A DNA stretch of 3,003 nucleotides from the NCBI RefSeq assembly GCF_003334385.1, contig NZ_QOWN01000096.1. One strand, given 5' to 3'. A program made the translations under genes and the position numbers. The stretch is from Escherichia coli. GTDB taxonomy: Bacteria; Pseudomonadota; Gammaproteobacteria; Enterobacterales; Enterobacteriaceae. This document shows positions 2,313 to 2,388 of this stretch, piece after piece. Position 1 is the stretch's first letter. Each line of letters starts with the position of its first letter. The notes beneath the pieces were generated by a model, which made no database searches, had not been told where the DNA came from, and saw only the letters and a list, made by a program, of their open reading frames with translations.

Positions 2313-2319
2313 GGTTTAT

Positions 2320-2324
2320 TCCTT
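2320..2324 (-). promoter_or_regulatory. Shine-Dalgarno sequence for rhs (AAGGA, 7-nt spacer to ATG)
   Basis: Minus-strand sequence reads aaaggaataaaccATG directly upstream of the rhs start. Confidence 0.7.
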
Positions 2325-2388
2325 TTCTTTTACCTTACATGGCCATACAAATAGTTACCTATACTGTCTTTGAATATTGCCCTACCAT

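Follow-up and report, generated by a model that had tools for sequence, protein, structure and literature searches.

Introduction

The Rhs elements of Escherichia coli have a composite architecture that consists of a GC-rich core, an AT-rich extension, a downstream ORF (dsORF) and an H-rpt, which is an IS of the ISAs1 family, and RhsH was originally described by Wang et al. 1998 in J Bacteriol. In the C-terminal displacement model (Jackson et al. 2009, PMC2935791), rhs tips undergo homologous recombination.

The transcription of rhs loci has been described in two related systems. In Salmonella, promoter activity was undetectable in the 200-nt stretch that precedes the rhs start (P1), and the toxin tip and immunity gene are driven by promoters that lie inside the rhs 3' region (PMC7043789). 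In EHEC, full-length rhsF has an inactive transcription start site, and transcripts of the tip and immunity gene arise at an internal promoter within the rhs 3' region; in the tandem rhsF-rhsFI-rhsG-rhsGI locus the next rhs behaves likewise (PMC7618764).

The present work concerns a window, by which we mean the entire stretch of 3,003 nt that was analysed, in which a spacer of 76 nt separates a small ORF, dsORF-h1, from the start of an rhs gene. We argue that these 76 nt are probably a passive intercistronic junction in a tandem array of Rhs toxin/immunity modules, and not a dedicated regulatory element. Related loci with which the window was compared are referred to by L numbers.

Results

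Layout and genomic setting of the locus

Both genes and the spacer lie on the minus strand, and they run from the small ORF (2838..2389, with its stop codon TAA at 2391..2389) through the 76-nt gap (2388..2313) to the ATG of rhs (2312..2310). The spacer reads ATGGTAGGGCAATATTCAAAGACAGTATAGGTAACTATTTGTATGGCCATGTAAGGTAAAAGAAAAGGAATAAACC on that strand. GC content is 34.2% in the spacer, 63.9% in rhs and 32.4% in the small ORF. All of the coordinates given in a first-pass annotation, which had described the region as a short AT-rich spacer of 76 bp between the small ORF and rhs, were found to be correct. From its ATG to the window's left end (2312..3), the rhs frame is uninterrupted throughout its 770 codons. 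The features are collected in Table 1.

Table 1. Features of the 3,003-nt window, ordered by position
Feature	Position	Strand	Description
rhs core gene, 5' 2312 nt	1..2312	-	N-terminus MSGKPAARQGDMT..., YD-repeat core; 64% GC
Spacer, 76 nt	2313..2388	-	34% GC; lacks a terminator and a promoter, has no Rfam match; RNA fold not unusual
rhs leader	2313..2332	-	common to other rhs paralogs; Shine-Dalgarno AAGGA 2324..2320, 7 nt before ATG
dsORF-h1 3' flank	2339..2388	-	accompanies the immunity cassette whatever its downstream neighbour
Palindrome ATGGCCAT	2339..2346		chance level; altered in sister lineages
dsORF-h1, 149 aa	2389..2838	-	32% GC; name from RefSeq; putative immunity gene, orphaned here
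11-nt gap with GAGG Shine-Dalgarno	2849..2839	-	between tip relic stop and dsORF-h1
RhsH-type toxin tip relic	2850..2898	-	one leftover base, last 15 codons (VDGPLQTMKITGTPE) and TAG stop
ISEc1 right end (ISAs1 family, 'H-rpt')	2899..3003	-	terminal inverted repeat AATCTTGCCCTG 2910..2899; 3' end of transposase gene 3003..2909

Many complete E. coli chromosomes contain the right 804 nt of the window at 100% identity, and the RefSeq annotation of this segment places three features on a single strand: an ISEc1 (ISAs1-family) transposase, 'RHS element protein dsORF-h1' and an RHS core protein. RefSeq genes named 'RHS element core protein' match the rhs gene at 100% identity, and it is labelled in identical genomes either by that name or as 'RHS repeat-associated core domain-containing protein'. 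The setting of the identical loci is the T6SS/rhs region adjoining yafV, where the full order in strain G1/2 is hcp - vgrG - rhs - immunity - ISEc1 - dsORF-h1 - rhs - IS1 ... yafV. The composite of core, extension, dsORF and H-rpt was recognized here in all three of the respects in which it was tested. A serine-rich stretch of low complexity (ESSLSSPAGPRSVSSSSSAF, residues 267-286) was also observed in the N-terminal region of the Rhs protein, at window 1455..1514 on the minus strand.

dsORF-h1 and the toxin tip removed by ISEc1

In L002, L003, L004 and L017, dsORF-h1 begins 11 nt past the stop codon of a full-length Rhs core-plus-tip gene, and in strain 94-3024 (L002, pptA/narZ locus) the gene that precedes it encodes a complete Rhs protein of 1419 aa. 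The tip and the dsORF have diverged jointly between L002 and L003 (85.8% identity for the tip, 90.7% for the dsORF), and a paralogous tip-plus-immunity pair follows in L007. Because of this synteny with the tip, the joint divergence and the paralogous pair, dsORF-h1 is best read as the putative immunity gene of an RhsH-type tip.

The RhsH-type tip (L002:6441-6989) carries a HEFAH (HExxH) motif and has a weak match to Peptidase_M91 (E = 0.002), and the N-terminus of dsORF-h1 resembles a signal peptide when judged by eye (MMKYLMVLLSLFSGSVLG). A HEFAH tip paired with a signal-peptide-like immunity protein hints at a metallopeptidase toxin that would act in the periplasm. The dsORF-h1 protein has no match in Pfam or NCBIfam, and a protein search returned just 20 clusters, of which all those named after an organism were Escherichia/Shigella. 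A distant blastn search in E. coli genomes found no relatives of dsORF-h1 or the spacer below 90% identity.

In the window, the tip survives as a relic that is identical at 50 of 50 positions to the end of the L002 tip, and the terminal repeat of ISEc1 ends at 2899 directly against it. The right repeat of this ISEc1 copy matches the left-end repeat found in L005 and L007 (CAGGGAAAGATCA / CAGGGCAAGATCA), and ISAs1 copies border the dsORF-h1 cassette in L002, L005 and L014. ISEc1 has removed the toxin tip except for its last 15 codons, and since the end of the element abuts those codons, dsORF-h1 is here an orphan immunity gene.

The reading in the first-pass annotation needs two corrections. 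The small ORF is no upstream partner of the rhs gene in the window; it is the putative immunity gene of a different, upstream Rhs tip, 11 nt after whose stop codon it is found elsewhere. The interval 2839..2950 had been proposed as a promoter region; it is made up of the tip's last 15 codons and the right end of ISEc1, and no promoter-like site was found in it or, more narrowly, between the ISEc1 end and dsORF-h1.

Composite origin of the spacer

Alignments of rhs paralogs to the window start at window position 2332, 2324, 2312 or 2308 (query positions 119, 127, 139 or 143), and the vgrG-linked rhs genes of L006 and L003 share the leader ...AGAAGGAAT..ATG with the window. A diverged lineage (L007-L010, L016) retains the first ~48-50 nt past the dsORF-h1 stop codon with two substitutions; its immunity protein is 78-79% identical, and its downstream sequence is an orphan rhs core fragment, not a full rhs. 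The downstream neighbours of these 5' ~50 nt comprise a full rhs, a 43-nt rhs stub followed by ISAs1 (L002, L014, L018) and the orphan core fragment (L007-L009), and in L005 an ISAs1 copy lies inside the spacer at window 2332. Because the paralogs match only from 2332, 2324 or 2312 onwards, and because the 5' ~50 nt follow the immunity gene, the spacer is, as judged from these alignments, a composite of the 3' flank of the immunity cassette (2388..~2339) and the ribosome-binding leader of rhs (2332..2313, the final ~12-20 nt).

The 76-nt spacer and a second rhs follow dsORF-h1 in L003, L004, L015 and L017, and the ancestral order would have been rhs(core + RhsH-type tip) - dsORF-h1 - 76 nt - next rhs. 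The same cassette of dsORF-h1, spacer, rhs stub and ISAs1 was observed at the yafV locus in L014 (ETEC H10407) and at the pptA/narZ locus in L002; its presence at two chromosomal rhs loci in different strains indicates that the module has moved between loci.

The palindrome in the spacer

The octamer ATGGCCAT is the sole perfect 8-bp palindrome of the spacer and lies ~30 nt upstream of the rhs start. The first-pass annotation had offered it as a possible protein-binding site, with the caution that a palindrome of this length is not rare by chance. The caution was well placed, since at least one perfect 8-bp palindrome occurs in 23% of mononucleotide shuffles of the spacer; the window as a whole contains eight of them. 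The position of the palindrome reads ATGGACAT in L003, L004, L015 and L017, and it is occupied by a tandem octamer repeat (ATGGCAAT/ACGGCAAT)n in L007-L009 and L016, so that one of three lineages has the dyad symmetry. In a test for a palindromic operator, the dyad was neither beyond chance expectation nor kept in the orthologous spacers. The suggestion of a binding site consequently loses its footing: the palindrome is at chance level (p ~0.23), and its being broken in both sister lineages argues against such a site.

One form of that suggestion would make ATGGCCAT the operator of a dimeric DNA-binding protein, for example in autoregulation by the immunity protein or the toxin-immunity complex in the style of a type II toxin-antitoxin system. 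A perfect 8-bp dyad ~30 nt before the rhs start is what such an operator might look like, and behaviour like that of a type II toxin-antitoxin module has been proposed for pairs of Rhs tip and immunity protein (PMC7043789, PMC7618764). We nevertheless regard this explanation as extremely improbable, given the frequency of such palindromes in shuffled spacers, the broken dyad in the four loci with ATGGACAT and the non-palindromic character of the repeat (ATGGCAAT)n in the diverged lineage. In addition, the palindrome lies downstream of the immunity gene and not at a promoter, and dsORF-h1 has an N-terminus that resembles a secretion signal and no match to a DNA-binding domain. In the explanation preferred here, that of a passive junction, the palindrome is a functionless chance feature of one lineage.

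Conservation around the junction

Only 1 of the 76 nt of the spacer differs between lineages whose flanking genes differ by ~10%, and purifying selection, as opposed to a recombination tract held in common, could account for this. The conservation extends into the immunity gene. Between lineages, identity is 95-100% over a block at ~2500..2339, in which ~110 nt at the end of dsORF-h1 are joined to the first ~50 nt of the spacer, and 74-90% over the rest of the gene. The difference between the block and the rest of the ORF is 94.7% versus 82.9% in L007 (Fisher p = 3e-4) and 97.5% versus 88.6% in L003 (p = 1.4e-4). A metagenome contig (L011:741-1166) contains a chimeric gene in which an unrelated 5' half is joined to an identical 3' ~200 nt of dsORF-h1 and an identical spacer. 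We read the block and this chimera as signs of a mosaic produced by recombination, which agrees with the C-terminal displacement model, and the block may alternatively be a selected cis element, the comparison in either case covering three lineages.

A more specific proposal, which is compatible with a passive junction, is that the block has been kept as a downstream homology arm for the exchange of tip and immunity cassettes. The sharp step in divergence inside the immunity gene, the L011 chimera, the occurrence of the same block next to three different downstream neighbours and the presence of the cassette at both the yafV and the pptA loci are all what would be expected of such an arm, and recombination of tips by homology is the process invoked by Jackson et al. 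2009 (PMC2935791). We hold this proposal to be possible and yet somewhat doubtful, because a few chance recombination events among only three lineages can yield a mosaic without any selection for a 'joint', and because constraint at the protein level on the C-terminus of the immunity protein may explain part of the block.

The octamer repeat that occupies the palindrome position in the diverged lineage was located at L007:1595-1637, L008:1241-1283, L009:1858-1892 and L016:1849-1889. It has five units in L007 and L008 and four in L009, and the order of the units is different in L016. With five units, one ATG is in frame with a 253-aa ORF that encodes an orphan Rhs core plus a HEIAH tip; with four units, none is. 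The difference in copy number could represent a slipped-strand switch or could be noise from short-read assembly, and the repeat variant had no match in a metagenome scan. One can combine these elements into a picture in which the ~160-nt block is a selected recombination joint and the palindrome position is the seed of an octamer repeat that acts as a slipped-strand on/off switch for the orphan toxin, but we think it very unlikely that this picture is correct.

Distribution of the spacer and state of the downstream rhs

In a survey of 5426 complete E. coli genomes, the spacer was found in 1083 and dsORF-h1 in 1084. The spacer is nearly always present as a single copy, and 1023 of the 1083 genomes carry it in identical form. 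More than an rhs stub lies behind it in only 94 of these genomes, and the other 989 have no rhs gene there; in the loci without rhs that were read (L002, L014 and the MAG contig L018), 43 nt of the rhs start are followed by ISAs1. About 47 of the 94 rhs-bearing genomes match at 99% identity or more and are of the window type, with ISEc1 upstream; the rest match at 95-99% (L003 97.6%, L004 96.8%) and have a complete or partial rhs with tip upstream.

Since 989 of the 1083 spacer-bearing genomes have no rhs behind the spacer, its conservation cannot be read as regulation of rhs. In these ~989 genomes the spacer has the same ~99% identity as the neighbouring ORF, and its preservation in the absence of rhs points to recent common descent rather than to a constraint tied to rhs. 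Among species-representative genomes the spacer had one match, on a 1.7-kb contig of a 'Collinsella sp.' MAG (L018, JAIJJM010000683.1). That contig is identical to the E. coli arrangement of dsORF-h1, spacer, 43-nt rhs stub and ISAs1, and it is probably a mis-binned E. coli contig.

The rhs that follows the spacer is annotated as frameshifted in five genomes (L001:9692-13686, L012:9692-13836, L003:7527-11475, L004:7527-11319, L015:6027-9975). The position of the frameshift differs in each of the four cases that were re-checked, lying at about codon 1331, 210, 481 and 562, and this repeated, independent decay suggests that selection on the displaced rhs copy is weak. In L013 the rhs after the spacer is intact; a 5'-truncated IS precedes it, and no operon is obvious upstream on that strand.

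Signals for transcription and translation

The first-pass annotation had also stated that the spacer lacks a terminator and a convincing sigma-70 promoter, and both statements are borne out. A search for intrinsic (Rho-independent) terminators gave no site on either strand of 2100..3003, the spacer RNA has no run of T longer than 3, and a 121-nt RNA that spans the spacer (2410..2290) has a minimum free energy of -18.2 kcal/mol and is no more stable than its shuffles (z = +0.82). No promoter-like site scoring 9/12 or better was found in the spacer, and the three such sites in 2100..3003 are all outside it. In a permissive scan of the coding strand over 2460..2300 for -35 and -10 hexamers separated by 16-18 nt and situated upstream of the rhs start, the best pair scored 8/12, in a consensus scan which is by its nature blind to promoters that depend on activators or other sigma factors. 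This score is at the level of shuffled sequences, 492 of 500 of which reach 8/12 or better and 286 of 500 of which reach at least 9.

Other regulatory signals were equally sparse. An Rfam search of both strands of 2100..3003 gave no match at E <= 1, and the motifs of IHF, CRP, Fur and LexA had no exact match in 2291..2420, where the matches with one or two mismatches carry no weight. Two mini-ORFs on the minus strand of the spacer were considered as genes and rejected. The first, MVGQYSKTV* (2388..2359), has an ATG that abuts the stop codon of dsORF-h1 (TAAATG) and shows a Q-to-K change in L007, and the second, MAM* (2346..2335), is made by the palindrome itself (ATGGCCATGTAA). Neither has a Shine-Dalgarno sequence at a usable distance, and both are therefore treated as chance.

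With no terminator or promoter in the spacer and both genes on one strand, transcription coming in through the small ORF can be expected to go on into rhs, which makes read-through co-transcription from dsORF-h1 into rhs plausible. RNA polymerase that enters through dsORF-h1 would run on into rhs, and rhs would be translated independently from its own ribosome-binding site (a canonical AAGGA). Loci of the ancestral type, such as L003, would owe this transcription to the hcp/vgrG/rhs operon or to a promoter internal to the 3' region of the upstream rhs; for the window, the simplest guess is a source in ISEc1 or further upstream.

The Salmonella P2 region aligns at 68-71% identity with the E. 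coli cores upstream of dsORF-h1, but its hexamers are not kept in the cores examined, where TTGACG/TACAAT is replaced by ATGATG/TACAAC or TATAAC. P2 can therefore be used solely as an analogy, and it is from EHEC that we infer an internal promoter in the ancestral-type loci. A promoter inside the upstream rhs would, by that analogy, send transcripts through dsORF-h1 into the second rhs.

A different account of rhs expression would place its start within the junction: the spacer or the AT-rich 3' end of dsORF-h1 may hold a promoter that is weak, non-canonical or dependent on an activator, and perhaps subject to silencing by H-NS, which would give rhs a transcription start of its own. We consider this unlikely. 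The greater conservation of the spacer and the last ~110 nt of dsORF-h1 relative to the rest of the immunity gene would suit a promoter, but that conserved sequence is identical in ~989 genomes with no rhs behind it. Likewise, the intact rhs of L013, which follows a truncated IS with no obvious operon upstream on its strand, counts in favour of this account, but at least four genomes have an rhs behind the spacer that is frameshifted at different positions. The promoter scans speak against this account as well, with a best coding-strand score that does not exceed that of shuffles and no reported site in the spacer, as does the lack of promoter activity in the 200 nt upstream of rhs in Salmonella (PMC7043789).

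If instead rhs transcription depends on read-through, as the passive junction implies, then the expression of a displaced copy hinges on whatever lies upstream of it, and such dependence, if true, fits the repeated pseudogenisation of rhs in different strains.

Discussion

The junction between dsORF-h1 and rhs is an ordinary part of a well-known kind of element, and is in that sense already known. The finding resolves into textbook Rhs-element architecture in which the palindrome can be dismissed, and it matters little beyond the corrected annotation that it supplies: the small ORF is an orphaned putative immunity gene that lost its tip to ISEc1, what had been supposed to be an upstream promoter region is a relic of a toxin next to an IS end, and the spacer is a mosaic in which the flank of an immunity cassette meets the ribosome-binding leader of rhs. 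The conserved block and the variable octamer repeat bear on the exchange and silencing of Rhs cassettes, with few sequences behind both.

The spacer resembles an ordinary intercistronic spacer of an operon in its length of 76 nt, in its position between genes on the same strand, in its lack of a terminator and in having a canonical AAGGA 7 nt before the ATG. It differs from such a spacer in being a mosaic of two evolutionary units, and in most cases it is a relic, which in the loci read is followed by a 43-nt stub.

The rhs genes of Salmonella, main as well as orphan (PMC7043789), and the rhsF-rhsFI-rhsG-rhsGI locus of EHEC (PMC7618764) have the same order as the array considered here, with an rhs, an immunity gene and a next rhs or rhs fragment on one strand and separated by short gaps. 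In those arrays the promoters directly before the full-length rhs genes are reported to be silent and the immunity genes to be transcribed from inside the upstream rhs. In the window, the region that would be expected to hold the internal promoter has been replaced by ISEc1.

A further likeness is to the E. coli Rhs elements as defined by the laboratory of C. W. Hill (RhsG/H subfamily), with which the window shares a GC-rich core beginning MSGKPAARQGDMT, an AT-rich dsORF and an adjacent ISEc1/ISAs1 copy, and the cassette occupies, as there, the known rhs positions at yafV/fadE and pptA. The window departs from those elements in that its dsORF, whose own tip has been removed by ISEc1, is found upstream of an rhs start, a placement which arises because the locus is a tandem array.
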